DNA of 57,166 nt from a bacterium (lineage in GTDB: Bacteria > Patescibacteriota > Patescibacteriia > JACPHY01), in NCBI GenBank assembly GCA_030647005.1, contig JAUSKG010000031.1:1-57166 (forward strand), given 5' to 3'. Within the stretch, counting starts at the first letter, position 1. The number at the start of each line of letters is the position of its first letter. Made by a program: the position numbers and the translations under genes. Below the pieces are notes generated by a model. That model searched no databases. It worked only from the letters and a program-made list of their open reading frames with translations, and was not told the DNA's origin. This document shows, piece by piece, positions 21,491 through 38,647 of the stretch.

Positions 21491-21987
21491 AGAGTGTAGC
21501 GATAGAGTTTCGGAGAGCCCGCGCTGGTGTCCACGAGGTCATGCTGCCACCCGTCCATGGGCCAGACGTAGAGGATGACGCGCGTACCCGGACGGCACTC
21601 GCGCTCGAGCTTGCGACGCAGCGTGCGGTACACCTTCGGCATGAGGAAGACGTAGATGACGTCAGCATCGGAGAGGTCTTGCCTCCAGAAGTCACGGTAC
21701 CGCACCACACCGCGCCGCCTCCCGCGGATCCTGGCGATGAGGTACGGGAGCAGGGAGACCTCAAAACCGGTCGCGTGCGCACCCGCGGCTGCCGCGGCGC
21801 GCACGAGTCGCCCGTCACCGCACCCGAGATCGTAGAACCGCTCACCGGGCCGGAGCTGCGCCATACGGTGGAATCGCGCGACATCGCGCGCATGCATCGG
21901 CACCCACGGCGCGGCGCTCAGTGCTCCGTAGGAGAACGTCCCCACGATGGGCAGGAGGAGGAGCGCACCGACAAGGATCGGGTCCAT
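21487..21987 (-). CDS. Class I SAM-dependent methyltransferase (small, membrane-anchored?)
   Basis: 166 aa with 'RFYDLGCGDGRLVRAAA' motif I. 4-nt overlap with the downstream gene. Confidence 0.7.
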   Translation of the reverse strand: MDPILVGALLLLPIVGTFSYGALSAAPWVPMHARDVARFHRMAQLRPGERFYDLGCGDGRLVRAAAAAGAHATGFEVSLLPYLIARIRGRRRGVVRYRDFWRQDLSDADVIYVFLMPKVYRTLRRKLERECRPGTRVILYVWPMDGWQHDLVDTSAGSPKLYRYTL

Positions 21988-22003
21988 ACGCGGCGCGCGA
22001 ATG

Positions 22004-22816
22004 CTAGTCCAAAACGATCATCGCCTTTCCACCGGTCGGTGCCCCATCCTCGTGCATCCAGTCGGCAATCGCGCCGTAGAGGTCGTCATAGGTGTAGCGC
22101 TGGCCCGCGCCTTTCGTGTTCGTCCCGACATCGTTCGTGATGAACTCCTGCCGTGCGTCGTCGTACCCGATGATGACAAGCATGTGGTAGAGCGGGCCGG
22201 GCGGCGTGAAGTATGGTGAATCGAGCTCGCGGCCGCGCGCGGGCACGATGACCGGCTTGCCGGCATCAATCGCCGCCATGATGTCTGCGATCGTCACGAA
22301 ACGGACCTCGCGCGTGTTCTCGTGTCCAAACTTCTCTCGGAGGATGCGCGCGGTCTCGGCCACGGTCGTATCTTCCCACGTGCCGAGGTGTTCCTCCTCC
22401 CACTGCTTGATATCCATGAGTGCCGCGTCGAGCTCGCTCGCCGTGTCCACCCGCTCTCCCGACGCAAAGAGGTGCAGCGTGAGCACCGATGCCTCCTCGC
22501 AGAACTCCTTATACGGCAACGACCAGACGCGGTACGGTGCCTGAGAGACGAAGGGAACATCGAGACGGACGACACCGCGAGCGACCACACCCCGCGCCTC
22601 CTCCAGCGGTGTGTCTGCAGCGGTGCTCTCTTCGCTTGCGGGGGGTGTCAACGCGGGCACAGCAGAATTGCCCTTCGTCTCCACGACGAGGGGCACCGGC
22701 GGGGACTCGCTCGCGGGAGTCGTCGCGATGTGCGCCTCACGCTGTACAAAACCCAACCAGCCGGCCACCACGACGGTGCCGACGAGAAGCAGGCGAACGG
22801 TCCAGGTTCCAAACAT
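22004..22816 (-). CDS. Peptidase C39-like domain protein (secreted/anchored)
   Basis: 270 aa with an N-terminal TM. 'VPFVSQAPYRVWSLPYKEFCEEASVL' and 'YHMLVIIGYD' resemble Peptidase_C39_2 Cys/His regions. Confidence 0.65.
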   Translation of the reverse strand: MFGTWTVRLLLVGTVVVAGWLGFVQREAHIATTPASESPPVPLVVETKGNSAVPALTPPASEESTAADTPLEEARGVVARGVVRLDVPFVSQAPYRVWSLPYKEFCEEASVLTLHLFASGERVDTASELDAALMDIKQWEEEHLGTWEDTTVAETARILREKFGHENTREVRFVTIADIMAAIDAGKPVIVPARGRELDSPYFTPPGPLYHMLVIIGYDDARQEFITNDVGTNTKGAGQRYTYDDLYGAIADWMHEDGAPTGGKAMIVLD

Positions 22817-22866
22817 ACGCCGAAAGCATACCCCGCAGCCGCGCGATCGTCAACGCTCATTGCAGC

Positions 22867-23427
22867 TTACATGCCCGCGAGACCGAGCACCGCATCGAGC
22901 GCCTCCGGGAGCTCGCGGATGCCACTCGACCCCTCAAAGTGCCGCTTGCTATGCAGTGTGATGATCGTTGCACCGAGACGTTTCTTGAACACCGCACCGT
23001 GCGTGAGCGGGACGAATGCATCATCATCGGAATGGAGCGCGACGAAACCACTCACGACACGCGCCTGGATGCGGTCCCAGTTGATCGGTGTCGTGAAGTA
23101 GCTCGCGAGCTCCGCATACCCGAGCGCGTCGGTGAAGCCCGCGACGAGCACAACACCGCCGATCTGCTCCCCCGCGTCGAGTCCTTCGAGGTACCGGAGG
23201 ATCGTGATACATCCCACGGAGTGTCCGATGAGGTACGTATCCGGCGTGGGCACGCCAACCACCCCCGCGAGCTGCGGGACCCACCCCGCGAGCGTCGGCG
23301 CATCCGCAGGCGTCATCGCTGGCACATCCACCACGAACCCCTGCGCCTCGAGTTGGCTCTTGAGCCATGGGAAAAAACCCTCCTCGGGGTTCCCCTCCCA
23401 CCCATGGATGATGAAGGCACGACGCAT
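22867..23427 (-). CDS. Alpha/beta serine hydrolase, YdeN/RBBP9-like
   Basis: Trimmed to ATG 23427 ('MRRAFIIHGWEGNPEEGFFPWL'). Nucleophile elbow 'GHSVG', then 'SDDDAFVP' and 'HF'. Confidence 0.7.
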   Translation of the reverse strand: MRRAFIIHGWEGNPEEGFFPWLKSQLEAQGFVVDVPAMTPADAPTLAGWVPQLAGVVGVPTPDTYLIGHSVGCITILRYLEGLDAGEQIGGVVLVAGFTDALGYAELASYFTTPINWDRIQARVVSGFVALHSDDDAFVPLTHGAVFKKRLGATIITLHSKRHFEGSSGIRELPEALDAVLGLAGM

Positions 23428-23438
23428 ACGCTCCACGG

Positions 23439-24086
23439 TCACCGTTTCCGCATGTACGGCTTCGTGAACCAGAGGAGCAACGAGCCGATGACCGAGAGCA
23501 CCACGACGGTGATGATGAGCGTCGGGAACCCCTCGCTGGCAGCGAGGTACCCTCCGAGTGCCGCGAGCGTGGCACCGGTGATGTCGATGAGCGTGTAGTA
23601 GATCCCCCACTCCGTCCCCTCCTTCGAGCGATCAATGTGCCGCGTGAACATCGCCATGAACGTCGGGAACGTGAACGACGCGAAGAGACCGAGGAAGAAC
23701 TGGACGAGGTAGAGATGGAACGGCGTCGAAACGAACAGGTAGAGGAGTGGCGTGAGCGACATGAGGACGGACGCAACGAGGAGGATCCAGAAGTCATCGC
23801 GCTCACCGCGAATCCGGTCAATGATGTAGGCGACTGGAATCTGCAACGCGCTCTTCGTGAAGAGGTAGATCGCGGCGGCAAGTCCAGCGACCGCCTCGTT
23901 CCCTCCCTGCACGAAGTCCTCGATGAAGAGCGCGAAGACCGGACCAAACAGCCCCCACGAACCCAGGATGATCGTATCCGAAAGGATGAGGAACCGCACG
24001 ACCGGATTGACATCCTGGAGGAAGAGGTGGCGGAAGTTGATAGAACGTTTCATAGACAGTACGCGTGCACGCTCAACGCGTCGCAC
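23439..24086 (-). CDS. Six-helix MFS-like membrane protein (half-size)
   Basis: 215 aa with ~6 predicted TM helices and an MFS-like loop 'IIDRIRGERD'. An alternative start is at 24053. Confidence 0.5.
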   Translation of the reverse strand: MRRVERARVLSMKRSINFRHLFLQDVNPVVRFLILSDTIILGSWGLFGPVFALFIEDFVQGGNEAVAGLAAAIYLFTKSALQIPVAYIIDRIRGERDDFWILLVASVLMSLTPLLYLFVSTPFHLYLVQFFLGLFASFTFPTFMAMFTRHIDRSKEGTEWGIYYTLIDITGATLAALGGYLAASEGFPTLIITVVVLSVIGSLLLWFTKPYMRKR

Positions 24087-24194
24087 TGATGCAGTGGGAT
24101 GTAAGAACGCCTCTCACCAGCATACCCCATAACAGTGACATTGGTCGCAATACTGCGCCCGCCACTCGGGTCGCACGTGCGGAGTCGGCAGCCG

Positions 24195-25205
24195 CTACTC
24201 GTGACGGTCGTTCGGGTTTCCATCGGCCGCGTTTCCTTGGTCCGTTGACGGAACGATGCGCTCGATAATGTACGCGCTGCCGCTACGACCAACCAGGCGG
24301 TAGCGATCTGCGGAGAGGCCGGTGAGCACTTGGCGCACCGTGGACGGTTCGCTCATGTAGCCAACGGCGGTTGCGATGATGATGCCGCCCGGCGCAAGTA
24401 GGTGATCAACGGCGCGAAATGCATGCTCGTGTGTCACCGAGACGCCGGTGGTATCCAAGAGGATGGCATCGGCGGACCCTGCGGCGAGGTCGCCATCTGC
24501 AATTGCGACATCGAGTGTTTTTTTGATGAGTCGTGCTTCACGCCCCTTTGCCCGGGCCTTCACATCCGCGCCCTGCGGCCCGCCGGTCGTCACACAATCC
24601 ACCGATGCAACCGGCGCGCGATCAATGTGGTCGAGCATCCTACTCGCATCTCCACCGGATGCCGGATAGACCACGCGGAGATCCGTGCGACCCGTTTGCG
24701 CGCCGAGCCATCGAAGTGCGCGAGCAACGGCAAAGCTATTCTCCGTAAATCCGTGTTCCTCAAATACGCGGAGCACCGTATCCACGAATGAGCCGCCGAT
24801 GGTTTTGCGATCAGCGGACTTTTCTGCAAGCGTTGCAATACGCCGCGCCAACGCGCCATCACCCACGAGATCCTTCAGCGCGTCGAGGTCGGTGTGCTCG
24901 CCAGTGAGCGCGACATCGCGCGTGCGTTCGCGAAGCTCCTGCGGTATCTCGGGGGCAAGGATGTCCAATGCATCGCGCAGACGCACCTCCGGTGTATCTT
25001 CCCACGGCACTGCACGCTCGACGCTACGCGCTTGCTCAAAAATCGTGCGCGGGTGCTGTTCTGTCGGTGCATCCGGTGTGACGCGCGCCTGCTCGGTCGC
25101 ATGGGATTTTGTTGGTTCTTCTTGCATAGTGTTGTGCGGTCCGTTAGACCATAGGTGCAATACTGGAAGAGTACGAAAAAACCCCATGGAAAGCCATGGG
25201 GTCAT
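24195..25205 (-). CDS. Hypothetical protein (C-terminal Rossmann/methyltransferase-like?)
   Basis: 336 aa. The ATG overlaps the upstream stop (ATGA). 'LRVVYPASGGD...AILLDTTG...LLAPGGIIIA' is weakly MTase-like. Confidence 0.5.
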   Translation of the reverse strand: MTPWLSMGFFRTLPVLHLWSNGPHNTMQEEPTKSHATEQARVTPDAPTEQHPRTIFEQARSVERAVPWEDTPEVRLRDALDILAPEIPQELRERTRDVALTGEHTDLDALKDLVGDGALARRIATLAEKSADRKTIGGSFVDTVLRVFEEHGFTENSFAVARALRWLGAQTGRTDLRVVYPASGGDASRMLDHIDRAPVASVDCVTTGGPQGADVKARAKGREARLIKKTLDVAIADGDLAAGSADAILLDTTGVSVTHEHAFRAVDHLLAPGGIIIATAVGYMSEPSTVRQVLTGLSADRYRLVGRSGSAYIIERIVPSTDQGNAADGNPNDRHE

Positions 25206-25558
25206 CTGGTGAGCCGTGCAAACGCGCGCTCCGTGTCTTCAAGGAGGTCCTCCGAGAGGTACGCGACGGTGTATCCGTTCACGGACTCGGACTGCACGTC
25301 ACGCCGGAATCCATGAGGAAGCAACGCGAGGATACTCACCTCACCGGTCGCCTTCCGCTCGACAAGGCACTTGATGAGATCGAATATCGCGCTGAATGGC
25401 ACCGCGAAACGCGTAGGTGCATCCATCTCGGTCGGGATTGCATCGAGCGACGGGAGATCCACGAACGCGTGATGCATCCGCTGTGCGATGGACCGCAACG
25501 CGGTGAGGTGTACGGGCACACATCCGTAGCAGTAGAGTGTCGGCATAGGCACACCCAT
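25202..25558 (-). CDS. Hypothetical protein
   Basis: Trimmed to ATG 25558, which overlaps the dsbD-like stop (TAATG). 118 aa, no motif recognised. Confidence 0.45.
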   Translation of the reverse strand: MGVPMPTLYCYGCVPVHLTALRSIAQRMHHAFVDLPSLDAIPTEMDAPTRFAVPFSAIFDLIKCLVERKATGEVSILALLPHGFRRDVQSESVNGYTVAYLSEDLLEDTERAFARLTR

Positions 25559-26784
25559 TATCGCACAGACACTTCCGCCGTGCGAAGAGCGTTCAGGAAC
25601 TGGGCGACGTTGACCTTGCCGTTGATGCGGCCGACTTCGCGCCCGCACGAACGATCCAGGAACACAACGGTTGGCAGTCCGCGCGGTTCGTAACGATCCG
25701 CGATGGCGGGCACCACATCCACATCGAGTCGAATGCGGCCATGTGTGGCGAGCGCGTCCGCGACGGCAGGATGTGCAAGCGTCGTTGCATCAAACTCGTG
25801 ACATGCGACGCACCACTCGGCACCGAAGTCCATGACGACGAGATCGGAGTCATTGCACGCGTTCGCGAGGCACGTGCCCGATGCATCTTCGGCACACCAA
25901 CCCTGCGCCGCGGGAGTGGCGAGCGTATTCACGAGCACCGACGCTGCAACGGTTGCCACCATCCCGGCTGCGAGACGCGCAACGCGCATGCGGCGTTCGT
26001 ATGCACGTGGGGACACACTCGCTGTGATGCCGACAGCAAGTGCCGTTCCCAGAAGCAGCACGAGCGCGCCGACCGATGGCGATGGGAGGAACACCGTGCG
26101 GAGCGCGGGAATCGCGTTGCGGAAAAACCAGAACGCGCCGATGCAGAGCACGATACCGAGCGTCCACTTCACCGCCTCCATCCACGGGCCGCTGCGCGGA
26201 AGACGACCAGCGCCGATGCCAACGCAAAAGAATGGAAGGCCAAACCCGAGTGCGTGTACGGCGAGGAGCCCGACGCCGAGCGTCGCACTGCCTGCGGTAC
26301 CAACGACGGCGAGGATTGCAGCGAGCACCGGACCGGTGCATGGGAGTGCAAGGAGTCCCGTTGCAGCACCGACCGCACATGCGCCCGCCGTACTCGCGCC
26401 ACCCACCCGCGCGAGGCGCTGGCGCAACGCGAACGGAAGCCGCAGCTCGTACATGCCAAACATCGCGCACGCGAGTGCTACGAAGAGCACGCCCATGACG
26501 ACGTGAGTCGCCGTATACTGATAGATCGCGCCAGCCATTCCGCCGGTTGCTCCAGCAGTGAAGCCGAAGACGCAGTACGTCGCAACGATACCCGCGACGA
26601 ACGCAGCACTGCGACGCACCGCTACACCACGCGCACCACCTGCACCGGCACCGACGTACCCGAGGGTCACCGGCACCATCGGGAGCACGCATGGCGTTGC
26701 GACCGTAACGATACCGGAAACGAACGCGATGATCCACAGCAGCACGGAGTGCGTCGCGAACGCGTCCGTGAAGATTTCAGCCAT
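25558..26784 (-). CDS. DsbD/CcdA-type thiol:disulfide transporter fused to a C-terminal thioredoxin domain
   Basis: Start at ATG 26784 with AAGGAGG upstream. Membrane cysteines 'ATPCVLPMVP' and 'ALPCTGPVLAAIL'. C-terminal 'DFGAEWCVACHEF' CxxC. Confidence 0.8.
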   Translation of the reverse strand: MAEIFTDAFATHSVLLWIIAFVSGIVTVATPCVLPMVPVTLGYVGAGAGGARGVAVRRSAAFVAGIVATYCVFGFTAGATGGMAGAIYQYTATHVVMGVLFVALACAMFGMYELRLPFALRQRLARVGGASTAGACAVGAATGLLALPCTGPVLAAILAVVGTAGSATLGVGLLAVHALGFGLPFFCVGIGAGRLPRSGPWMEAVKWTLGIVLCIGAFWFFRNAIPALRTVFLPSPSVGALVLLLGTALAVGITASVSPRAYERRMRVARLAAGMVATVAASVLVNTLATPAAQGWCAEDASGTCLANACNDSDLVVMDFGAEWCVACHEFDATTLAHPAVADALATHGRIRLDVDVVPAIADRYEPRGLPTVVFLDRSCGREVGRINGKVNVAQFLNALRTAEVSVR

Positions 26785-26999
26785 CTCTTCCTCCTTGTTA
26801 ACTCCAAGTTGTAAAGGTGCGTCTGCACCGTAACACGAGGATTCATACGTGTCAAGCATCTGTAGTGGGCTCATACGGCGACTTGACTCCAAGATCAATA
26901 TATGATGTAGTGGTACGTCGCTGGATAATCCAGTGGCACGTTTTTTCACAACTGGCTGCAAGCCACAATCCCCAACCCATACCCCATAGGAGGTGATTC

Positions 27000-28826
27000 A
27001 TGTCGCTGTCACTAATGCAGCAAGTCGTCCTCACACAACGTCTCGTCGTATCCATGCCGGAGATCCAGTGGAGCCTTCTCCAGGCGTACCAGAACGGAAT
27101 CATCGGGCCGCCGCCCTACGTCGAGCCGACGTTCGAGGAAGAGAACTTCACCCCGCGCCTCAAGCTCACGCAGAGCAAAATCGAGGGCTTCGAGACCCTC
27201 GGCCACGTCGAGCGTATGCGCCTCGTGGATACGGCCAACGAGATCTTCCGCTTCGCCTACACGCGCGGCGTTGATGAGGCAGACAACAGGAAAAAGGGCT
27301 ACTACAAGATCCCCCTCCTGCGTGACCGCACCATCATGGACGCGCACGACGGGATAGACACGATCAAGAAGCGCATCAGCCGCGCCGAGTACGATCGGGC
27401 AATCGCCATACTGGAGTCCGTCGGCGAAATGGAACGCATCGCCCGCGCCATCCCGTACTTCGGCCTGTACCAGACGGTCGTCAAGCACCTCCGCCGCGCC
27501 CACAAGGTTGGTCTCGAGCAGACCGTGCTCGTGTCTGTAGACCGCGGTGGTCGCCTTCCCTGCATCATCCTGCAACGCGCTCTTGGTCTCACCGAGATGC
27601 ACAGCATCAAGGTGGATCAGAGCGGTGGTCGGCTCGACGAGGACAAGCTCGGGGAGCTCGCCAAGCAGGGAGTTCTCCGAGGCAAGCACGTCCTCTTCGT
27701 GGATTCGACGGTGGACTCCGGCCGTCAGATCCGAGTGTTGGTGCAGTACTTCGATGCGGACAAGTGGCGCAACGTGCTCGGTCACTCGAGCTGGAGTATC
27801 GTCGGCTCGAACGAGTACGGCGACAACCTCGACCGCCACTGCAACGTCAACTGGGGCGTTGACCCAGACGACACCTTCGAGGACAATCCGGAACTCATGG
27901 GCATTGACTATGCCCCCGGCACCCATACCAAGATCGTGGAGCGTCCCACGGAAGCATCCAAGACGATCCGCAAGTGCCTGCTTGCCGTCCCCGACGGCTA
28001 CATCTATGTCGCCGCGGATGCCGACAACCAGATCGAGGAGCAGCGCAAGAAGTGGACCGAACGACAAAAAAACCGACGTGCGGGACACGACCAGCAGGTC
28101 ATCGAGGAACGGGCCGAACACGCACAGGAGGTAGTCAAGTACAAGGAGCAGCAGAAGCAGGCCAGGACCGAGGAAGCCAAACGTCGCAAGCGTGAGCAGG
28201 TCGAGCGAAAACTCGAGAGAATCACGTCCAGCAAGCGGTGGAAGAAGCTCGTCGCCAACTGCACCGCCCTACCCGAGGAGTCGTTGCCGGTGGCCTTGCC
28301 GAACGGAACCCATCACGCGCGCCACAATGTGCTCGTGGTCGGGTCAGGGAAGCAGGTAGACCTTCCGCGGAGCGCGGTGCAGTTCGTGGCCGACAACCTC
28401 GGTCCCCACTGCTCGTTCTTTGCGGGAACGCCGGACGGCAACCCTGGCGCAATCCTCAATGCGACCCTCACGAGCAACAAGGTCGCCCAACCGGAAGTTC
28501 GTCTCTACCAGCCCAGCTTCATGCAGGGCAGAACGGACGATTCGTTCGGCGGAGCACCCATCATGTTCGTGGGCGAGAAGGATGACATGCGTCGGCAGAT
28601 GATCTCCGACAGCAACGTCGTCCTGACCCTCGGCGGCGCACAGGGCACGCTTCGCGAAGTACTCCTCGCGCTTGCCGCCGGCAAACCGACCATCCTGATC
28701 GAGGGCTACGGTGCAGTTTCGGCCTACGTGCTCTCCACCAAGAGCACGCGCCAGAATCCGAACCTGAGGCCGTGCAAGACCCTCGTCGAGGCCGCGCAGA
28801 CCATCCTGGACATGTCCAAAGCGTAG
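27000..28826 (+). CDS. Phosphoribosyltransferase (PRTase) - coiled coil - SLOG/LOG-like (TIGR00725-type) Rossmann fusion protein
   Basis: 608 aa with AGGAGG 7 nt upstream of the ATG. PRTase: 'TVLVSVDRGGRLPCIILQRAL' and PRPP loop 'KHVLFVDSTVDSGRQI'. K/E/R/Q-rich segment ~aa 345-415. C-terminal 'NVLVVGSGK' and 'VVLTLGGAQGTLREVLLALAAGKPTILIEG' resemble the LOG-family GGxGTxxE motif. Confidence 0.6.
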   Translation: MSLSLMQQVVLTQRLVVSMPEIQWSLLQAYQNGIIGPPPYVEPTFEEENFTPRLKLTQSKIEGFETLGHVERMRLVDTANEIFRFAYTRGVDEADNRKKGYYKIPLLRDRTIMDAHDGIDTIKKRISRAEYDRAIAILESVGEMERIARAIPYFGLYQTVVKHLRRAHKVGLEQTVLVSVDRGGRLPCIILQRALGLTEMHSIKVDQSGGRLDEDKLGELAKQGVLRGKHVLFVDSTVDSGRQIRVLVQYFDADKWRNVLGHSSWSIVGSNEYGDNLDRHCNVNWGVDPDDTFEDNPELMGIDYAPGTHTKIVERPTEASKTIRKCLLAVPDGYIYVAADADNQIEEQRKKWTERQKNRRAGHDQQVIEERAEHAQEVVKYKEQQKQARTEEAKRRKREQVERKLERITSSKRWKKLVANCTALPEESLPVALPNGTHHARHNVLVVGSGKQVDLPRSAVQFVADNLGPHCSFFAGTPDGNPGAILNATLTSNKVAQPEVRLYQPSFMQGRTDDSFGGAPIMFVGEKDDMRRQMISDSNVVLTLGGAQGTLREVLLALAAGKPTILIEGYGAVSAYVLSTKSTRQNPNLRPCKTLVEAAQTILDMSKA

Positions 28827-28850
28827 GCAGACAACGTCGAGGAACAACCC

Positions 28851-28882
28851 AAGACCCGCACAAAAGTGCGGGTCTTGTTCTT
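28851..28882 (+). terminator. Probable intrinsic terminator of the PRTase-SLOG gene
   Basis: Perfect 11-bp stem 'aagacccgcac/gtgcgggtctt', loop AAAA, then 'gttctt' (weak U-tract), 25 nt after the stop. Confidence 0.55.
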
Positions 28883-28964
28883 GGCGGTTTCAGCTTCCCC
28901 ATGCAACACTGCTCCGGATTTGCAATTCGGTTAAAGATGCGGGTGTAAAAAACGCAGAAGTAGT

Positions 28965-29012
28965 GTCATTGCGAGGAGTCCCGAGCTTGCCTCGGGACTC
29001 CTCGCAATGACA
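28965..29012. repeat. Short perfect palindrome of the GTCATTGCGAGG family
   Basis: 'gtcattgcgaggagtcccgag cttgc ctcgggactcctcgcaatgac': 21-bp arms. Confidence 0.8.
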
Positions 29013-29094
29013 CTAACATGCAAAAATGAAATACCCTGCGGTCTCTGCCGAAGGGTATTTCATTGGACTTGACCCCTTACCCCAATACACTACC

Positions 29095-29123
29095 TTGACA
29101 CAACCGATATTTCCTGCTATGAT
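29095..29123 (+). promoter_or_regulatory. Near-consensus sigma-70 promoter for the CSD-fusion gene
   Basis: TTGACA (29095..29100), 17-nt spacer, TATGAT (29118..29123). Predicts a ~115-nt leader before ATG 29244. Confidence 0.6.
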
Positions 29124-29243
29124 GGGGAATACCGTGCTCCCCGGCCCTCTGCGCAGGTACAGCCCCGCGCAGGGTCCCCGGGTGGGCATAATGCTCATTC
29201 CCAAAGGAAATCTGACTGACTGCTGCTGTCTGGAGTGTTACAA

Positions 29244-30716
29244 ATGTCGAAAGCAAAGGAGTACCTCGGTCGAATCGTGACGGTTCGGCAAGAGGAGGGG
29301 TTTGGATTCATCGGATTGGACTCGGTGTCCATGGATGACGGAAGCGACCACGATCTCGAAACGACCGGCGACATCTTCGTCCACCAGGACGATTGCGGGT
29401 CACCCCTTCAAGTCGGCGTGACGCTGCAATTTGAGGTCGTTGCGGACCACCGTCGCGGCGACGGGTTCCTCCGCGCGCGTTGCGCCACGGAACTGGCCGA
29501 GGTTGAGGTCATGCCGGACAACGATCCGGTCGTGATGGCACTCGCCACGCAGCGTGACGCGTATCGTGGCGAGCACGCGCTCGCGATGCCGATCCCGCCG
29601 CACCCGATGCGACACCGCATGAAGCAGGTGCCGGAGGAGACGGTCGCGCAGGTCGTGCAGAACGACCCGCTCCCGGAAACATCGCGAGATGAGACCGATG
29701 CCATGGACCCCAACGACCCGCGCACCGCGCAGGCGCTCCGGGCGTTCATGGAGCACGCGTACCCACATCTCGCAGGTCTCGAGATTGGCTACGACGTCCT
29801 CAACGCGGACGAGGAAGCATTCGACACGAAAGTCGCGGAGGCAACCGCGGGTCTCCGCGAGCTTGGCATGGAAGAGCAGGCGCAGCACGTCGAAAGCGAG
29901 ATGGGACGATTCCGCGGCGTGCGCCGCGTACTCGGGTTCATGGCCGAGCAACGCTTGCTCCGGCCGAATACGTGCATTCCGACACGGTATCTGCCGGACC
30001 TCTTCATGGCATGCCCGGTCTGGTTCCACGCAACGGATGAGCAAGCCGGAGGTGCCGCGAATGCGGAGTGGGACAGCGCGGACCCCCGTGTCCATGCTGC
30101 GACGATCGCGCTCTGCGACATCTTTCCGAAAAACGAACGCTGGTCGGACACGGTGCAGCTCTTCAACCGTCGGCTGCGGACCCTCGCGCGGTACAAGGGT
30201 GACGTGATCCCGTTGCAGATCACGCGCCTCATTCGTGAAGCACGACAGCACTTCGATCACCTCGTCATCGCGACCCCGTACCACGACGTGGCCGGACGCG
30301 AGTGGCAGGATCCGAACTGGCTCCGTGGCATTGACCCATACGTCATCGGCATGCAGAACGGCTGTTCGCACTTCTTCATCCTCGGACGGTTCTCGGACTC
30401 CGGCGTGTTCCCGCTGCTCCATGAGCTCGTCGGGGACACCATCGAGTTCCTACGCAAGAACCGCGAAAAACTCGCGGGGTTCAATGAGACGAACGATCCG
30501 TACTGGCACGTCGGAAGCACTGGAGTCCACTGCCACTCCCAACGCTCCTGGCATGGGAGGACCAGGGTCAAGCTCGGCACCTTCCTCCAGAGCCATGTGG
30601 ACGCACTCCTGCGTGCCTTCGATGCAGGGAAGCTCTTCGACTGGCTCCGTGGCGAGTGGAGCGAAGATGCGACATCCGCCAGCCCGACCACGAGCAGCGC
30701 ACCCCCGCGTACCTGA
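29244..30716 (+). CDS. Cold-shock-domain (CSD/OB) N-terminal fusion protein with large uncharacterised C-terminal region
   Basis: ORF from GTG 29235; ATG 29244 is preferred (GGAG 8 nt upstream). N-terminal 'GRIVTVRQEEGFGFIGLD...GDIFVHQDD' resembles CSD RNP1/RNP2-like motifs. The remaining ~400 aa are unrecognised. Confidence 0.6.
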   Translation: MSKAKEYLGRIVTVRQEEGFGFIGLDSVSMDDGSDHDLETTGDIFVHQDDCGSPLQVGVTLQFEVVADHRRGDGFLRARCATELAEVEVMPDNDPVVMALATQRDAYRGEHALAMPIPPHPMRHRMKQVPEETVAQVVQNDPLPETSRDETDAMDPNDPRTAQALRAFMEHAYPHLAGLEIGYDVLNADEEAFDTKVAEATAGLRELGMEEQAQHVESEMGRFRGVRRVLGFMAEQRLLRPNTCIPTRYLPDLFMACPVWFHATDEQAGGAANAEWDSADPRVHAATIALCDIFPKNERWSDTVQLFNRRLRTLARYKGDVIPLQITRLIREARQHFDHLVIATPYHDVAGREWQDPNWLRGIDPYVIGMQNGCSHFFILGRFSDSGVFPLLHELVGDTIEFLRKNREKLAGFNETNDPYWHVGSTGVHCHSQRSWHGRTRVKLGTFLQSHVDALLRAFDAGKLFDWLRGEWSEDATSASPTTSSAPPRT

Positions 30717-30818
30717 TAGCACCACGAACCCCCTCCGATACTCTCGGAGGGGGTTCTTCTTTTGGACCTAGTACAGATACTTTTAGATCGTTTGGAAAAT
30801 GGTGTCAAATTCTTTGTT

Positions 30819-30957
30819 AAAGAAAGGGGTCATAAAGAAAGGGGTCAAGTCCATTTTTCATTCGATCACCTCATACTTCCCATAGCCGTCATCGTTAAAT
30901 AAATGGACTTGACCCCTTTATTAGACCCCTTTATTTACATATTGACCCCTTTATTTA
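30819..30957. repeat. Repeat R1: internally palindromic ~105-bp element plus extra GACCCCTTTAT iterations
   Basis: 'aaagaaaggggtcataaagaaaggggtcaagtccatttttcattcgatcacctc...aaatggacttgacccctttat', then 2 more 'gacccctttattta'. Direct repeat of R2 (31558..31664). Confidence 0.75.
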
Positions 30958-30994
30958 GCCGCACTTCTGGCATTTCGGCGAAAAAATCCGGCGG

Positions 30995-31456
30995 CTATCT
31001 AATAAATCCTCCATGTATCAAACAACGATACACAATTTTCTCATTCAACAAAATTTCCTCCTGACCAGCAAAGTTTTCTAACCCACCCCTTGCCGTAAAT
31101 TGATAAGTCCATTCGCCATCAGAAAACTTTGCTGGTCCTCGAACTGGTATTACATCGTCATACTCTTGCATAAGTGCTTGTCGGAGAAAATCGTATACAT
31201 CTTTCTCGCTTACTTTTTCATCAAGGACAAAGCCGAAATAATTTGCTCCCCATACCGGCTTTTCATTTTCATATACGATTTCCTCGCCGATAAAATCGCG
31301 CCCACCAAAATAAGTGTCGTGGTAAATTAAGCCGTCCTTTTCAAAATGATAATCTTCTGATCTCAAGCGAGAGGGCGCGACTTTTGGAGCGGTCTTGTTG
31401 GCGTAGGTTGCCTTGTTCGCCTCATTTAGAAACTTTGCAAGATTTTTTATGTCCAT
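30995..31456 (-). CDS. DUF5680-like protein on a strongly AT-rich cassette
   Basis: 153 aa. 'ATYANK...SRLRSEDYHFEKDGLIYHDTYFGGRDFIGEEIVYENEKPVWGANYFG...RGP...VYRCLIHGGFI' matches my recollection of the DUF5680 pattern. Composition is sharply AT-richer than the surrounding genome. Confidence 0.6.
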   Translation of the reverse strand: MDIKNLAKFLNEANKATYANKTAPKVAPSRLRSEDYHFEKDGLIYHDTYFGGRDFIGEEIVYENEKPVWGANYFGFVLDEKVSEKDVYDFLRQALMQEYDDVIPVRGPAKFSDGEWTYQFTARGGLENFAGQEEILLNEKIVYRCLIHGGFIR

Positions 31457-31557
31457 AGTTATTTACCATTATACTTATCCAAAAATTTACCAATTATCTT
31501 ATTGGCCTCCTCGATAATTTCAGGGTGATAACGATAATCGTGGTCTGATTTTAATGG

Positions 31558-31664
31558 GGAAGAAAGGGGCCATCACGAAGAAAGGGGTCAAGTCCATTTT
31601 TCATTCGATCACCTCGTGCTCCCTAAAGCCGCCATCGTCAAAGAAATGGACTTGACCCCTTTAT
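31558..31664. repeat. Repeat R2: direct copy of R1
   Basis: 'ggaagaaaggggccatcacgaagaaaggggtcaagtccatttttcattcgatcacctcgtgctccctaaagccgccatcgtcaaagaaatggacttgacccctttat'. High identity to R1 by eye, same orientation. Confidence 0.75.
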
Positions 31665-31787
31665 CTATTCCTACCAGGTTACACTTTTTGTAAAGTCCAG
31701 TATACGTTTGGTAAAAAACACGTTATTTTGGCTAAAATGAGCTGATAATTTTCATACCAATTCTCTGTCCCTCGCTAGAGCAAGATT

Positions 31788-31861
31788 TGGCTGGGGGGGA
31801 AGGAATCGAACCCTCATGCTGGGCTTCAAAGGCCCATGTCCTACCATTAGACGACCCCCCA
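31788..31861 (-). tRNA. tRNA-Gln (anticodon TTG), CCA encoded
   Basis: 74-nt cloverleaf by hand: acceptor TGGGGGG/CCCCCCA, anticodon arm TGGGC-CTTTGAA-GCCCA, T arm GAGGG-TTCGATT-CCTTC, G-CCA 3' end. Confidence 0.9.
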
Positions 31862-31900
31862 ATGAGGAAGTATCACCCGCCTCAATGCATTGTACCGTAT

Positions 31901-31934
31901 GAGATTTCTCGGTCGTGGACTCTCTCGAAATGAC
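31901..31934. repeat. Half-copy of the second palindromic repeat family (...GAGATTTCTCG...TCGAAATGAC)
   Basis: 'gagatttctcggtcgtggactctctcgaaatgac' matches the right arm of 47923..48069. Confidence 0.5.
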
Positions 31935-31953
31935 AAAGGGGGCGCAGATGTCT

Positions 31954-32883
31954 TTATACTCGAAGGTACCTGCGGATGGCGATGGCGGAGATGGTGGTGG
32001 TGAGGAGGGCGAGGCCGAGGAACTCGGCGGCGGCGATCTCCCAGAGATGGTAGTGGAAGAAGGTGGCGATGTCAATGCCGCGCGCGCCGAGGAACTGGCG
32101 GAGGGTGGGCTCTGCGAGTTGGAGGGCGGGGAACGTGAGGAGCTGGGTGATAACCGTGGCGATCGCGGCGGCGAGCACGCCCATAATGAGGAACGGCGTA
32201 CGGACGAACCAGTTGGTCGCGCCGACGAGCTTCATGATGCCCACCTCATCGCGGCGGACGTACGTGATGACGCGCATCGCGTTGATGATGATGAGGAGCG
32301 TGACGAGGAAGGAGAGGCCGCTCATCGCGAGACCCGCGTAGCGGAGCTTCGCGGTGAGCGCATTGAGGCGTTCCACGAGCAGCGCGCGGTCCCCTGCTCC
32401 GGTCTCGATGATACGCTCCGAGAGCTGCGGATCATCGAGGAGCGCGGCGAGGATGGGGAAGTCCTCCGGTGTGCGCGCTTGGATGCGGAGCTCGGGGCCA
32501 AAGGGATTCTCGCCGAGTTCCGCGATTGCTTCCAGGATGTCATCGTTGCCGCGATGCGTCGCAGTGAACTCCTCAAACACCTGCGCGCGCGAGATGTGCG
32601 TGATGCCGAGGACCTCCTCGCGTGCGAGGAGCTGCGTGCGGATCGCGTCCACTTCGTCCTCCGCGACGGTGGGACGGAACTGGATGCGGAGGTCTACGCG
32701 CGCGCCAAGCTCATCGAGGGCGATGCGACCGGCGACGTTCATGCCGAGGAGCACCTGCACGCTGATGAGCGTGAGCGTGAGCATGACGACCGTGGTCATG
32801 GACAACCAGATGTTCCGAGCGAAGTCCACGAGCGCGTACTTGAGGAGGCGGAGGAAGGAGATGAACACAGGTGTGCGGTGCAA
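31954..32883 (-). CDS. ftsX: Cell division permease FtsX
   Basis: 309 aa. N-terminal 'LLKYALVDFARNIWLSMTTVVMLTLTL', 4-TM FtsX topology, located directly downstream of ftsE. Confidence 0.85.
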   Translation of the reverse strand: MHRTPVFISFLRLLKYALVDFARNIWLSMTTVVMLTLTLISVQVLLGMNVAGRIALDELGARVDLRIQFRPTVAEDEVDAIRTQLLAREEVLGITHISRAQVFEEFTATHRGNDDILEAIAELGENPFGPELRIQARTPEDFPILAALLDDPQLSERIIETGAGDRALLVERLNALTAKLRYAGLAMSGLSFLVTLLIIINAMRVITYVRRDEVGIMKLVGATNWFVRTPFLIMGVLAAAIATVITQLLTFPALQLAEPTLRQFLGARGIDIATFFHYHLWEIAAAEFLGLALLTTTISAIAIRRYLRV

Positions 32884-32891
32884 TGGGGGAA

Positions 32892-33572
32892 CTATAACCG
32901 GTAGGTGCCGTGCTTCTTATCCGCGACGATGCGGCCGTTATCGAGCGTGATGACGCGACGGCGGAGCATGTTCACGACGTCGCGGTTGTGCGTGACGAGG
33001 AGGACGGTCGTGCCAAAGCTATTAATCTTCTCGAGGAGGTCCGCGATCTCGCGCGTGTGGATGGAATCGAGGTTGCCGGTTGGCTCATCGGCGACGAGGA
33101 TCTTTGGACCGTGCACGAGCGCGCGCGCGACCGCGACGCGCTGCTGCTCGCCGCCAGAGAGCTGCCACGGGAAGCGCTCGCCCTTCCCATCGAGCCCGAC
33201 GATGTCGAGCACGTTTGGCACCACATCGCGGATGCGCTTCGTGGGTGCACCGCAGACCTCGAGCGCGAACGCGACGTTCTCGGAAACGGTCTTGTGGCGC
33301 AGGAGCTTGAAGTCCTGGAACACCGTCCCAATCTGCCGCCGGAGCACGGGGATGTCGCCATGGGGGATCGCGCTGATGTCCCAACCGCCGATGACAATCG
33401 AACCCTTGCTCGGCCGCTCCTCGGCGATGAGGAGCCGCACGAGCGTCGTCTTGCCCGTGCCGCTCTGCCCGACGATCGACACGAACTCCCCGGGCGCAAT
33501 ATGAAAATCAACACCGTCGAGTGCCTTGGTGTCCGGAGGGTACTGCTTGGTGATGCCGGTGAATTGAATCAT
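32892..33572 (-). CDS. ftsE: Cell division ABC ATPase FtsE
   Basis: Trimmed to ATG 33572 ('MIQFTGITKQY'). Walker A 'GQSGTGKTT', signature 'LSGGEQQR', Walker B 'ILVADEPTGNLD'. The start overlaps the upstream stop (ATGA). Confidence 0.9.
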   Translation of the reverse strand: MIQFTGITKQYPPDTKALDGVDFHIAPGEFVSIVGQSGTGKTTLVRLLIAEERPSKGSIVIGGWDISAIPHGDIPVLRRQIGTVFQDFKLLRHKTVSENVAFALEVCGAPTKRIRDVVPNVLDIVGLDGKGERFPWQLSGGEQQRVAVARALVHGPKILVADEPTGNLDSIHTREIADLLEKINSFGTTVLLVTHNRDVVNMLRRRVITLDNGRIVADKKHGTYRL

Positions 33573-34351
33573 GCGCGGAGCGTGACGAGGATACCGTTCC
33601 CGCGCTTCCATCGGAACGATCCGTCTATCTGTGCGAGGAGCCAGGGCACGGGATAGGTGAGGAGCGCGAACCACTTCCCGATGCCCTGCGCGAGCTGGAA
33701 GAGCTCCCACGCGAGTGCGCCCGGTGGGCCGAACGTGTGGCGCATTGCTGCGACGTGGAGACCCGCACACGTGGCGAGCGTGACGAGCTCCTCGGGCTCA
33801 AAGCCATCGCGCGCGTGATCGTGCTGGTCGTAGTGCACAAACTTTCGAAAGAACCGACGCTGGTGCACGCGGGGAACGTGGATGAGGATCGCACCGCGCG
33901 GCGTGAGGAGCCCCGCGAGCGAGCGAAGTGCCTCCTCCGGATGCGCGAGGTGCTCAAAGACATCCACACTGTAGATGATAGCATATCGCGCGTCGGGAGG
34001 CCCGACGGGTGTCGTTGCAAGCTGCTCGATATCCGCACGGTACGCTCGGAGCATCAACGGATGCACAGCGGTAAACCGACGTTGTGCGAGCGCGACGAGT
34101 CGCTCATCAATGTCAACCGCATCCACAGGACACGCGAACATGCGCGCACACCAGAGCGCGTTATCCCCGCGCCCGCACCCCGCATCGAGGATGCACTGCG
34201 GACGCAGGTGGCGCAACGCGCGATGGAGCGCGCGGCGACGAATGACCTCGCCGATGTGTCGTCGCCCCCATGAGAGGAGGAGCTGTTCTCGGAGTGGCAT
34301 AGATCTCCATGCTAGCATGACACGTCGTTCCATACCGCGCGTGGAACGCAC
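33569..34351 (-). CDS. Class I SAM-dependent methyltransferase
   Basis: 260 aa with 'ILDAGCGRGDNALWCA' motif I. Start uncertain: GTG at 34351 or the in-frame ATG near 34300. Confidence 0.7.
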   Translation of the reverse strand: MRSTRGMERRVMLAWRSMPLREQLLLSWGRRHIGEVIRRRALHRALRHLRPQCILDAGCGRGDNALWCARMFACPVDAVDIDERLVALAQRRFTAVHPLMLRAYRADIEQLATTPVGPPDARYAIIYSVDVFEHLAHPEEALRSLAGLLTPRGAILIHVPRVHQRRFFRKFVHYDQHDHARDGFEPEELVTLATCAGLHVAAMRHTFGPPGALAWELFQLAQGIGKWFALLTYPVPWLLAQIDGSFRWKRGNGILVTLRA

Positions 34352-34404
34352 AACACCGCGCGTACTACGCGCGGTGTTGTGCCCAATACACCCCCCATTA
34401 TCGT

Positions 34405-34522
34405 GTCATTGCGAGGAGCAAGTCCGCGAGCGACGTGACAATCCCGGTCATACCAGCACAATGGTGAAAGCCGTGTACAGTCTATGACCGGGATTGCCAC
34501 GTCGCGGACTCCTCGCAATGAC
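34405..34522. repeat. Full-length (118-bp) MITE-like element of the GTCATTGCGAGG family (inverted relative to the copies at 49870 and 56701)
   Basis: Long terminal inverted repeats 'gtcattgcgaggagcaagtccgcgagcgacgtgacaatcccggtcat' and 'atgaccgggattgccacgtcgcggactcctcgcaatgac' around a 32-nt core. The core is related, in reverse complement, to the cores of the other two copies. Confidence 0.8.
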
Positions 34523-34530
34523 ACACTGAT

Positions 34531-34761
34531 GATTTGAACCCACGACCCATCGCTTACCACGCAATGAGCGAGAGACGTAGCAATGTCTTACGCCTAAGCC
34601 GATGGTGGGATGCGATGTTTTCCGCAGGGGATGCCCCTGCGCGACCCCGCCACATCGTCACGCGCGGGTCGGGCAGAGCCCTTCCACCCGCACGCGCCGA
34701 TGCGCCCCACAACCCATCGCTTACCAACCGACGAACGAGAGCCCGAATGCCTGACGCCCAC
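34531..34761 (-). pseudogene. Mosaic of tRNA-Thr-derived fragments (non-functional) with a structured spacer
   Basis: The 27-mer 'gatttgaacccacgacccatcgcttac' at 34531..34557 is identical to 34774..34800 inside tRNA-Thr. The 15-mer 'agccgatggtgggat' at 34597..34611 equals 34762..34776. A third partial copy is at 34711..34725. No fragment completes a cloverleaf. Confidence 0.6.
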
Positions 34762-34833
34762 AGCCGATGGTGGGATTTGAACCCACGACCCATCGCTTAC
34801 GAAGCGATTGCTCTACCACTGAGCTACATCGGC
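34762..34833 (-). tRNA. tRNA-Thr (anticodon CGT)
   Basis: 72-nt cloverleaf: GCCGATG/CATCGGC acceptor, GCTC-AGTGGTA-GAGC D arm, ATCGC-TTCGTAA-GCGAT anticodon arm, GTGGG-TTCAAAT-CCCAC T arm. Confidence 0.9.
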
Positions 34834-34880
34834 AAGGGGCGTCAGGTATTCGAGACCGAACAAAACAACAGGGTACCACG

Positions 34881-34951
34881 AGCGGGTGAGGGGAATCGAA
34901 CCCCCGTCTCAAGCTTGGGAAGCTCGCATTCTGCCATTGAACTACACCCGC
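34881..34951 (-). tRNA. tRNA-Gly (anticodon CCC)
   Basis: 71-nt cloverleaf: GCGGGTG/CACCCGC acceptor, CGAGC-TTCCCAA-GCTTG anticodon arm, GGGGG-TTCGATT-CCCCT T arm. Confidence 0.9.
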
Positions 34952-34986
34952 ATCGACATCCATCGTACCCCGTCCCTCCATCGTCG

Positions 34987-35376
34987 TCAATGGAAGAGGT
35001 GGTGCCACCACCGCGTAAAGTTGGACCCCTCCTCCGCGGCGGGTGGTGCGGCCGCATCGGGCGCGTCGAACACGGTACCCGAGGGGACGATGAGGACATC
35101 CTCGCCGGGTTGCTGGAGGCCTAGGCGCAGACGCGCCTCGCGCTCGATGAACTCCGGTGTCTCGGACTGCTCGAGGAGATCGGTGAGCCGCACGCGCTGC
35201 TGCTCGAGCGCGGAGACCGTATCGGCAATCATTCGGATCTCCTCCTCGACCGCGCGCTTGCGACGGTACTCGCTCACGATGGCGGATAGCACGAATCCCA
35301 CCACGACGATGCCGATGAGGAGCGCGGCCCGCGATCGGAGTAGCGTACGGTCACGTGGTGCGTTCGTGCGCCTCAT
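34987..35376 (-). CDS. Septum formation initiator family protein (FtsB/DivIC-like)
   Basis: 129 aa with a single TM 'AALLIGIVVVGFVLSAIV', then a coiled coil, then 'PEFIEREARLRLGLQQPGEDVLIVP'. Confidence 0.7.
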   Translation of the reverse strand: MRRTNAPRDRTLLRSRAALLIGIVVVGFVLSAIVSEYRRKRAVEEEIRMIADTVSALEQQRVRLTDLLEQSETPEFIEREARLRLGLQQPGEDVLIVPSGTVFDAPDAAAPPAAEEGSNFTRWWHHLFH

Positions 35377-35990
35377 ACGTCGCCACCCTCGCGCGCTCGC
35401 AGCGCGAGGTCAATCCGCTCGCGGAGCCGCACGAGCTCAATCGTCGTGTACGCCGAGAGGTCGAGCACTGCGACGCCTGGTGGCGGCACGGTCGCACGGT
35501 GCTGCGCGTCGTGCTGCAGCGCACTGAGCATCTCATGCACGTGCTCCGGGTGCGGTAGGTTTCGGAGCTCAATGAGTGCGCTCGCGCCAGCGGTCTGGAT
35601 CTGAATCGTCCCCAGGCGGAAGATCGTCGCAATAATGCCTTTGATTTCGAGCGCGAGGTCGTCTATCCGATCGAATCGCGCCTCCGCAATGACGCGGTGG
35701 AAGACACCGACTTGATCGAGGTCTATGACGCGGAGATCCGTCACCATGAGCACCGTCCGGTACCAAAACCACCACGCGCGGATAAAGAGCACCACGCCGG
35801 TGGCGAGAAGGAGCACAAAGCCAATCAGGCCAAATGGACGCGAGGAGAGCAGCGGCACGATGAGAAAGAACGCAAGGACAATGAGCGACCCGCCGATGAG
35901 CGCGGTGGGCGCAGGGACGAGTTTCGAACGGCGGATGGTCGCTCGAACGACCTCGCCGTCACGGAGTGCCAGTCGTTGCGGGAGGTGCAT
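35373..35990 (-). CDS. Membrane protein with bacterial PH domain (bPH_2/YdbT-like)
   Basis: Trimmed to ATG 35990 ('MHLPQRLALRDGEVV'). Two TM helices followed by 'LGTIQIQTAGASALIELRNLPHPEHVHEML'. Overlaps the murE-type gene end by ~30 nt. Confidence 0.6.
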   Translation of the reverse strand: MHLPQRLALRDGEVVRATIRRSKLVPAPTALIGGSLIVLAFFLIVPLLSSRPFGLIGFVLLLATGVVLFIRAWWFWYRTVLMVTDLRVIDLDQVGVFHRVIAEARFDRIDDLALEIKGIIATIFRLGTIQIQTAGASALIELRNLPHPEHVHEMLSALQHDAQHRATVPPPGVAVLDLSAYTTIELVRLRERIDLALRAREGGDV

Positions 35991-37200
35991 AGTGCTTCTG
36001 AAGGAGTTCCCGAATGACCACGCGGTCGTCCCACGGGGTCTTCTTTCCACGCGGACCGACGATGGCCTGCTCGCAGCCCTTGCCGGTGATGAGAATGCGA
36101 TCCCCTGGTTGTGCGAGCGTGAGTGCTCGGGTGAACGCCTCACGCCGGTCGAGAATCTCCTCCACCACGGTATCGCTTCCCGTGCGCGCAATCCCGTCGA
36201 GCGCGCCGCGCGAAACCGCAGCGATGATCACGCGGGGGTCGTCGTCGTAGGGGTCCTCGTTTGTCACCAAAACGACGTTCGCGTGCTCGGCCGCGACCGC
36301 GCCCATTGTCGCGCGCTTGCGAACATCGCGGCCGCCGCCCACGCCGCCGAGGATGTGGATGGTCTTCCCCACCGGCTTCGGGAGTGCCGCGTATACCACC
36401 TCGAGCGCATGCGGTGTGTGCGCGTAGTCCACGATGACCTCGAACGGCTGGCCCGCAACGATGGATTCCAACCGCCCGGGGAGCGCGGTGATCCGTTCGA
36501 GCGCGCGCTCGACGTCCGCTGCGCCGATACCGAGTGCCGCGCAGACGACCTTCACCACCGCAACGTTCTCGGGGAACGCGGAGATTGCGGGCGCATACCC
36601 CGCACCGTCACGCGGGTTGAAGGTCGCGGTCGCCGTGAAGCGACGGTCGAGGAACTGCTCCGCGCGGTCGAGCGACGCGGGAACAATGCCAATGCGGCGC
36701 GCCTTCCGTCCGCGCGCGACGTGCGCGAAGAGCGCGGCCTTCGCGGCGCGGTAGGACGCAAACCCGCCGTGCGCCTCGAGGTGCTCCTCGCCAAGGTTCG
36801 TGAGGGCGACGACATCATAGGCGATCCCGCGGTGGCGGTACTGCGCAATCCCCTGCGACGAGGTCTCAATGATCACGTACGTGCAACCGTTGCGCGCGCA
36901 CGCTCGGAGGAACCGCTGGAGCGCGAACCGCCCGGGCATCGTCATCTTGAGCGCGTTCATCCACGTGCGAACACCGTCTCTCACCGTCGCGGTGGAGAAC
37001 CAACCGACTCGCACTCCTGCATCGCCCAACACCTGACCGAGCAACATGACGACCGACGACTTCCCGTGCGTGCCGGTGATACCGATGACCGTGAGCGATC
37101 GGCTCGGGTTGCCATACGCGAGCATGGCACCATACGCGAGTATAAAATGGTACGCGCGCACGAGGGGCTTAGGAATCAATGCTCGCATGGTGTGGAGCAT
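35959..37200 (-). CDS. Mur ligase family protein, MurE-type (short N-terminus)
   Basis: 413 aa with 'VIGITGTHGKSSVVMLLGQVL' P-loop, 'DYAHTPHALEVVY' and 'LGGVGGGRD'. Lacks the usual N-terminal domain. Confidence 0.8.
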   Translation of the reverse strand: MLHTMRALIPKPLVRAYHFILAYGAMLAYGNPSRSLTVIGITGTHGKSSVVMLLGQVLGDAGVRVGWFSTATVRDGVRTWMNALKMTMPGRFALQRFLRACARNGCTYVIIETSSQGIAQYRHRGIAYDVVALTNLGEEHLEAHGGFASYRAAKAALFAHVARGRKARRIGIVPASLDRAEQFLDRRFTATATFNPRDGAGYAPAISAFPENVAVVKVVCAALGIGAADVERALERITALPGRLESIVAGQPFEVIVDYAHTPHALEVVYAALPKPVGKTIHILGGVGGGRDVRKRATMGAVAAEHANVVLVTNEDPYDDDPRVIIAAVSRGALDGIARTGSDTVVEEILDRREAFTRALTLAQPGDRILITGKGCEQAIVGPRGKKTPWDDRVVIRELLQKHYAPPATTGTP

Positions 37201-37209
37201 ACGCGTAGG

Positions 37210-38586: not shown

Positions 38587-38647
38587 ATGTGGTGCTACCA
38601 CGTCAGCATGCTCCCTCTGAAGCTGGCGCGGGAGCGCCAAAGATGCG

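Follow-up and report, generated by a model that had tools for sequence, protein, structure and literature searches.

A candidate feedback unit of a covarying leader RNA and a cold-shock-domain fusion protein in Patescibacteria

The present analysis deals with a 57,166-nt contig from an ultra-small groundwater member of the Patescibacteria (JAUSKG010000031.1 of assembly GCA_030647005.1; the whole of this stretch is called the window in the following) and, within it, with a single gene for a 490-aa protein, P0001, together with the leader RNA in front of it. Judged from its sequence features, the segment 29095–30766 constitutes a self-contained, monocistronic expression unit made up of a promoter, a structured leader, the 490-aa protein and a terminator. 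The protein is predicted to fuse a divergent cold-shock domain (CSD) to a C-terminal module, and we see about even chances that the whole acts as a feedback unit, in which the leader would control translation via the protein's own CSD. Patescibacteria have tiny genomes with many genes of unknown function, and we know of almost no cis-regulators in this group; in this context, the leader adds a candidate cis-regulator that is supported by covariation. Promoter, leader RNA and protein travel together across very different genomes (37–65% G+C) and make up a sharply defined, testable unit.

The features of the unit and of its surroundings are compiled in Table 1. The consensus promoter named in the initial annotation of this DNA is present (TTGACA-17-TATGAT), and it is the sole site scoring above 9/12 within 5.5 kb. 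From the end of its –10 element to the ATG at 29244 there are 120 nt, and with an inferred transcript start near 29130 the leader would measure about 113 nt; the Shine-Dalgarno sequence, GGAG at 29232–29235, is located 8 nt ahead of the ATG. At the other end of the gene, we found an intrinsic terminator (30726–30756) that is absent from the initial annotation. The gene is present as a single copy in its own genome (G000; 1.06 Mb, 98% complete) and has the same G+C content as the host, about 61%, compared to about 43% in the flanking cassettes. Public sequencing runs containing this stretch were groundwater metagenome DNA only, with no RNA run among them; one of these DNA runs is probably where the sequence originated.

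Table 1. Positions of the predicted elements of the expression unit and of neighbouring repeats in the window.
Feature	Coordinates	Strand	Remarks
Perfect 25-bp inverted repeat, 5-nt loop	28961..29015	.	100% complementary arms; outside the expression unit
Hairpin 5' of the promoter	29025..29064	.	17-nt arms 29025–29041 / 29048–29064, 94% complementary
Solo 15-nt arm motif TGGACTTGACCCCTT	29064..29078	+	Downstream, the palindromic repeat elements R1/R2 have this motif as their arms
Sigma-70-type promoter	29095..29123	+	TTGACA-17-TATGAT; TG one base 5' of the –10 (extended –10); 11/12
5' leader RNA	29133..29243	+	Divergent member of the conserved structured leader family
Leader tail AAUCUGACUGACUGCUGCUGUCUGGAG	29209..29235	+	Tandem (A)CUG repeats (YYR units) running into GGAG
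Coding sequence (P0001)	29244..30716	+	ATG 29244 to stop 30716, 490 aa
Cold-shock domain, aa 1–87	29244..29504	+	RNP1-like GFGFI and RNP2-like DIFVHQ, 17-aa insertion between them
Linker, aa 88–118	29505..29597	+	pLDDT <50 at residues 87–118; variable in alignment; probably disordered
C-terminal module, ~355–370 aa	29598..30659	+	Helical hairpin and alpha/beta core; no family or fold match
Intrinsic terminator	30726..30766	+	13-bp G+C-rich stem followed by TTCTTTTGG; 10 nt past the stop codon

The G/C-rich hairpin that had been noticed in the leader (ggccctctgcgc...gcgcagggtcc) is present and turned out to be the core of a longer hairpin, termed P1, at 29134–29189. Upstream regions of homologous genes (37–62% G+C) feature a near-consensus TTGACA promoter about 134–210 nt before the annotated start and visibly similar leaders of 105–135 nt; in 21 of 31 homologous loci, a promoter scoring at least 10/12 lies equally far from the leader. 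For eight aligned leaders, RNAalifold predicted a long two-part hairpin and a short helix. A covariance model built from these eight leaders (model R1) retrieved 25 plus-strand matches, each directly upstream of a gene of the family, with the window copy at 29133–29228 (25.6 bits); minus-strand matches of this model were disregarded because they represent the reverse complement of the hairpin. A structured leader following straight after a near-consensus promoter is common to 24 loci.

The predicted helices are further supported by the pattern of base changes. In the model alignment of 20 sequences, 94.5% of the cells can pair, compared to 76% in column shuffles and 40–55% with slid partners, and 26 of 27 pairs display changes on both sides (111 cells), with none of 500 shuffles reaching any of the observed measures; these pair counts are inflated by the fitting of the alignment to the model. 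Alignments made with MAFFT only give the same P1 and, with 23 leaders, compensatory changes in 15 of 16 pairs. P1 comprises the stretches P1a (10 bp) and P1b (12 bp), which form one hairpin starting 2–3 nt past the inferred transcript start, and its arms differ in character, the 5' arm being pyrimidine-rich (UUUUCCUUCAG) and the 3' arm purine-rich and Shine-Dalgarno-like (CUGAAGGAAAA). The short helix P2, with 5 bp that all covary, bounds a loop containing the conserved UUCCUUUACAAGAUUCUGACUG. The family leaders have a tail, AAACUGACUGA(CUGGAG), that runs into the start site, and CUGACUG stands just ahead of the start codon in most homologous leaders. We also considered that the CUGACUGA tail might pair with the 5' arm of P1 and dropped this idea, as inspection of the leaders showed no conservation of such a pairing.

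The motif is also specific to its gene. Model R2 matched 29133–29228 at 25.9 bits, and this was the sole match in the 1.06-Mb genome of the organism itself. Among 151 genomes of the class, the same model gave four full-length matches, all immediately upstream of a gene of the family, and one partial hairpin match in a genome without the gene. Rfam 15 produced no leader match in the window at gathering thresholds; at E ≤ 5, a search of 28800–29300 returned on the leader only a chance-level miRNA row (14 bits), and the leaders of loci L020, L021 and L029 were without a match at E ≤ 1. On this comparative evidence, we regard the leader as a conserved, covarying RNA family that is absent from Rfam.

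The leader tail varies within the family. AT-rich members swap the (CUGA)n tail for CUAA, CUAC or UAAC repeats, e.g., CUAGCUACUAACUAAGUAACUACCUACCUAC, keeping the 4-nt period and the YYR character; such tails are located at about 5870–6000 in L005/L023, at about 2390–2458 in L044 and at about 2380–2430 in L022. CUGA and CUAA repeats place a stop codon in each of the three frames immediately ahead of the ribosome-binding site (RBS), and a role of (CUGA)n as a three-frame stop remains speculation, because the CUAC variants cannot do so.

Bacterial cold-shock proteins (Csps) are single-domain proteins of about 70 aa. A CSD-like N-terminus had been proposed for P0001 in the initial annotation, and this assignment is borne out by structure prediction and search together with conserved RNP1- and RNP2-like motifs. 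Modelling of the whole protein with AlphaFold2, using a 32-sequence alignment, resulted in a pLDDT of 85, and according to structure prediction and search the N-terminus adopts a cold-shock-type five-stranded antiparallel beta-barrel. EGFGFI occupies aa 19–24 and DIFVHQ aa 43–48; across 32 members H47 does not vary, and F22, D43 and D49 hardly do. PF00313 gave no match for P0001 and weak matches in 10 of the 32 members (best E 0.017), the family profile hit CspB in the PDB at E 0.049, and ESM Atlas searches by features and by structure returned CSD rows or TM < 0.3 only. Based on the predicted fold and these motifs, the N-terminus is a divergent CSD and a putative binder of single-stranded RNA or DNA. 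Compared to CspA/CspB (PF00313) and the eukaryotic Unr/CSDE1, Lin28 and YB-1, it is too divergent for the Pfam model, contains a 17-aa insertion between RNP1 and RNP2, and is attached through a probably disordered linker to a module that no other protein family shares.

No canonical csp gene (PF00313) was detected in G000, which is 98% complete, and the fusion protein therefore holds the only CSD detected in this genome, where it could possibly substitute for a Csp. A canonical csp gene was found in 19 of 41 related genomes. The presence of csp relative to that of the fusion gene follows no clear pattern, with G000 and G002 being without csp and G023 having both.

For the proposed feedback unit, we envisage a mechanism in which the leader sets translation initiation and the protein's own CSD would bind to the ACUG- or pyrimidine-rich single-stranded parts of the leader. 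This binding could change how often P1 forms relative to a competing structure, in which its 3' arm pairs with the P2 loop, and the outcome would be a feedback on the gene's own expression, similar to that of csp genes; the same CSD might deliver the C-terminal module to single-stranded RNA substrates. If the CSD indeed binds its own leader, the unit would represent a simple autoregulatory circuit, in which the logic of csp genes is reused in a multidomain protein.

Several observations are consistent with such a circuit. The leader was found at none of five family genes lacking the CSD, including L035 with 46% identity, and at 24 of 35 genes featuring it (naive one-sided Fisher test, p ~0.007, a value inflated by relatedness). 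Moreover, a pyrimidine stretch in the P2 loop resembles the 5' arm of P1 and is able to pair with the 3' arm of that hairpin; in RNAduplex calculations, this alternative pairing reached a mean z of –2.7 versus shuffled loops, with negative values for 19 of the 20 sequences. Between the P2 loop and the RBS region, pairing was no better than chance (z –0.5), and the sequences give no sign of the RBS being sequestered. The leader tail is an array of AACUG-type YYR units, i.e., of the kind of site favoured by Escherichia coli CspA, which prefers YYR sites on its own mRNA and whose binding to AACUGGUA was measured, with a Kd of ~1 uM (PMC9947658).

The arrangement resembles in several respects the 5' untranslated regions (UTRs) of csp genes, which are thermosensors, as described for E. 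coli cspA, whose product acts on its own mRNA (PMC9947658). In the thermoswitches of Staphylococcus aureus cspB and cspC, a long hairpin contains the anti-RBS sequence, and binding of CspA favours the other conformer (PMC8034633). Like these UTRs, the leader described here is a structured 5' UTR of more than 100 nt ahead of a CSD gene; it likewise features a long hairpin with a pyrimidine-rich (anti-RBS-like) and a purine-rich (Shine-Dalgarno-like) arm, a possible alternative pairing, and single-stranded YYR- or U-rich sites as bound by Csps. In contrast to the csp 5' UTRs, with which no similarity in sequence or model was found (the cspA leader of Rfam included), the motif is specific to the fusion-gene family in Patescibacteria. 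Judged from these features, the leader is probably a translational control element that may respond to the protein's own CSD.

A number of points weigh against this interpretation. Taken by itself, the window leader has no fold advantage over its shuffled versions (z –1.03), so that structure is not demonstrable from the single sequence; the long, regulatory-looking leader proposed in the initial annotation is supported far better by the covarying structure in 24 loci than by the fold of this one sequence. The window copy is also a weak and divergent member of the family (25.9 bits), in which P1 and the CUG-repeat tail are kept, whereas the part around P2 is shorter and the P2 helix itself could not be recognised. 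Furthermore, the link between CSD and leader is confounded by relatedness, and 11 divergent CSD genes are without a detectable leader, some of them (L005/L023, L044) having CUAA/CUAC repeats instead of CUGA. For the 6-bp alternative helix, 88% of the alignment cells are paired, compared to 84% after shuffling, and five of its six pairs display double changes; this signal is modest and largely a matter of base composition. The tail repeats are no specific signature, because the YYR preference of CspA is weak (Kd ~1 uM), and no function could be assigned to the C-terminal module from any search.

An alternative option would be a leader acting as a protein-independent cis sensor, either a csp-type RNA thermoswitch or a small-molecule riboswitch, in which case the link to the CSD would reflect shared ancestry only. 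The three-helix architecture and a P2 loop whose unpaired nucleotides (UUCCUUUACAAGAUUCUGACUG) are strongly conserved are typical of RNAs engaged in ligand or tertiary contacts, the leader could form either of two rival pairings, as do the cspB/cspC thermoswitches of S. aureus (PMC8034633), and thermosensing is known for csp 5' UTRs (PMC9947658). However, the organism stems from groundwater, where temperature shifts are presumably small, and the leader is absent before the CSD-less forms, the close L035 among them. For a riboswitch, moreover, neither is a ligand known nor does any metabolic gene nearby hint at one, and the window copy is without a recognisable P2, which would form the ligand pocket. 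Overall, we consider a protein-independent sensor rather unlikely.

Regarding the remainder of the protein, the initial annotation had left about 400 C-terminal aa unassigned, and this assessment was confirmed for about 370 aa. Folded alone, the module reached a pLDDT of 87 and a pTM of 0.87, with a helical region containing a long hairpin followed by an alpha/beta core; the motifs PVW, FNRRxR, TPYHD, DPY and RFSxxG are invariant. Pfam, NCBIfam and PADLOC gave chance-level rows only for the module and the protein, and the defence and phage protein models of PADLOC (E ≤ 1) and PHROGs (E ≤ 0.1) were without a match. At the level of structure, the best hits of the module model were at E 1.1 in the PDB (Foldseek) and at E 0.12 in BFVD, with no match in the ESM Atlas, and none of the profile and structure searches with the C-terminal region matched a known housekeeping family. 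The module, about 355 aa that are confidently predicted and strongly conserved and have no detectable relative, is therefore provisionally a candidate new fold; it was folded and searched as a whole, with the alpha/beta core (aa ~236–472) included.

The module also stands alone, in proteins of about 360–400 aa that begin inside the linker and are without the CSD. As it exists without the CSD, the module is the core of the family and the CSD an add-on. Copies of this type with about 29% identity were also found in metagenome-assembled genomes (MAGs) labelled as a DPANN archaeon (L055; record label Ca. Woesearchaeota archaeon) and an actinomycete (L056; uncultured Actinomycetes bacterium, 450-kb contig). 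If these labels are right, the stand-alone module reaches beyond the Patescibacteria.

P0001 had been introduced as an orphan, which is contradicted by the size of its family. A word-indexed search yielded 95 homologues with 29–58% identity, most of them full-length (430–560 aa), the nearest one to the window protein sharing 54% identity. A profile search with the C-terminal part, exhaustive over 1.84 billion cluster representatives, resulted in 197 proteins or clusters at E ≤ 0.001, all belonging to this one family. The few named homologues are listed as 'hypothetical protein' of Ca. Uhrbacteria, Kaiserbacteria or Patescibacteria; these entries (e.g., HYV74_00680 and A3A40_01865) are true members that agree in architecture and, for the most part, in their leader, none of them has a name, a Pfam domain or a study, and the window protein is one more member. 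In GTDB genomes we located 40 loci, almost all of them in MAGs of Patescibacteria. Of 41 close relatives, 3 have the gene, whereas G001, the genome of the same genus, is without it; class-wide, it was found in 9 of 401 genomes, which belong to different families. The family is thus rare and almost confined to Patescibacteria. In the related genome G063, the family gene is split over two contigs (C41 5136–5842 and C21 18624–19415), the second piece having an in-frame TAG, which may represent an assembly break or a pseudogene.

We found no paper on this protein family or on the leader motif. The family, which is publicly undescribed, combines a known kind of domain and a csp-like regulatory logic with a module lacking any fold or function match and an RNA motif absent from Rfam. 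A more far-reaching picture, which we put forward only tentatively and with less than even confidence, would be that of a new-fold module acting on RNA and carried by a CSD, preceded by a protein-responsive riboregulator leader with a 5' hairpin and an (A)ACUG platform, by which the protein would adjust its own amount, the unit being exchanged among Patescibacteria.

The distribution could also be explained by a unit that is mobile or cassette cargo, or a conflict gene (anti-phage or toxin-like), whose CSD would sense foreign nucleic acid, with the module serving as effector. The gene occurs sporadically (2% of class genomes, scattered over families) and is absent from the same-genus genome, its neighbourhoods vary, and the window copy adjoins a tRNA-Gln gene and lies between the solo arm motif (29064) and palindromes of the type that brackets AT-rich cassette genes at three loci of the genome. 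Against cargo or a conflict function stand the absence of matches in PADLOC and PHROG, the absence of an integrase, transposase or partner gene nearby, a G+C content that equals that of the host and not that of the cassettes, and the many members located among housekeeping genes; we regard this explanation as improbable.

The upstream neighbour of the gene encodes a PRTase-SLOG protein (27000–28826, +), and the initial annotation had joined the two into a functional two-gene module, with the CSD protein as nucleic-acid-binding partner or effector. Adjacency and the common + orientation speak for this, in this one genome only. The spacer between the two genes, however, measures 417 nt and holds a palindrome, a second hairpin and the consensus promoter of the CSD gene. 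The six homologues on long contigs have unrelated and variable neighbours, no PRTase or SLOG gene was found next to the gene in these six contexts or in any of 46 loci, and all-against-all clustering of the flanking open reading frames of the 46 loci revealed no neighbour family in more than four of them. The two genes are also found apart: G001 (same genus, 94% complete) has the PRTase-SLOG gene (80% amino-acid and 84% nucleotide identity) in a different context and without the CSD gene, its homology to the window stopping at 28882, just past the PRTase-SLOG gene, whereas G002 and G023 have the CSD gene and no PRTase-SLOG. In the genomes and loci searched, homologues of the CSD gene never co-occur with PRTase/SLOG genes. 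The fallback given in the initial annotation, an independent gene, fits the patchy distribution and the variable neighbourhoods. The unit is independent of its neighbour, and a joint function of the two, which we consider extremely improbable, can be set aside as a false lead.

The PRTase-SLOG gene (window 27030–28882 versus G001 contig C30 10171–12025, locus L015) is the only stretch of 20001–40000 shared with that locus. As both flanks differ in G001, the PRTase-SLOG gene is also located in a variable context.

The region around the gene contains further repeats. The palindrome at 28961–29015, between the PRTase-SLOG gene and the promoter, had been overlooked in the initial annotation, and Rfam gave spurious miRNA-like rows only for it. 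The hairpin upstream of the promoter (29025–29064) and the copy of the repeat motif (29064–29078) are both present as described there. The motif TGGACTTGACCCCTT occurs in five copies in the window, compared to 0.04 expected, and in 16 copies at three loci of the genome. On its other side, the gene is followed, close to the tRNA-Gln gene, by an AT-rich DUF5680 cassette bracketed by palindromic repeats of about 92 nt at 30830–30921 and 31573–31664. At three loci of the genome (window 30819–31664; G000 C2 56587–57918, L016; G000 C12 28384–29846, L017), palindromic elements of about 92–105 nt with the arms AAAGGGGTCAAGTCCATTT / AAATGGACTTGACCCCTTT flank AT-rich genes one at a time. These genes belong to unrelated families, namely DUF5680 in the window, NUDIX plus an HNH endonuclease on C12, and an unassigned 153-aa open reading frame on C2. 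These bracketed genes look like a cassette array without a visible recombinase.

In the same-genus genome, the PRTase-SLOG gene is immediately followed by an element related to the 28961–29015 palindrome (L015 10105–10145 versus window 34485–34525). Finally, the 13-nt CATTGGACTTGAC (window 29061–29073), which covers most of the solo arm motif, is found as the –35 region of the promoter (~7835–7850) of L003, the closest homologue on a long contig, so that this arm possibly contains a –35-type promoter element or originated from one.

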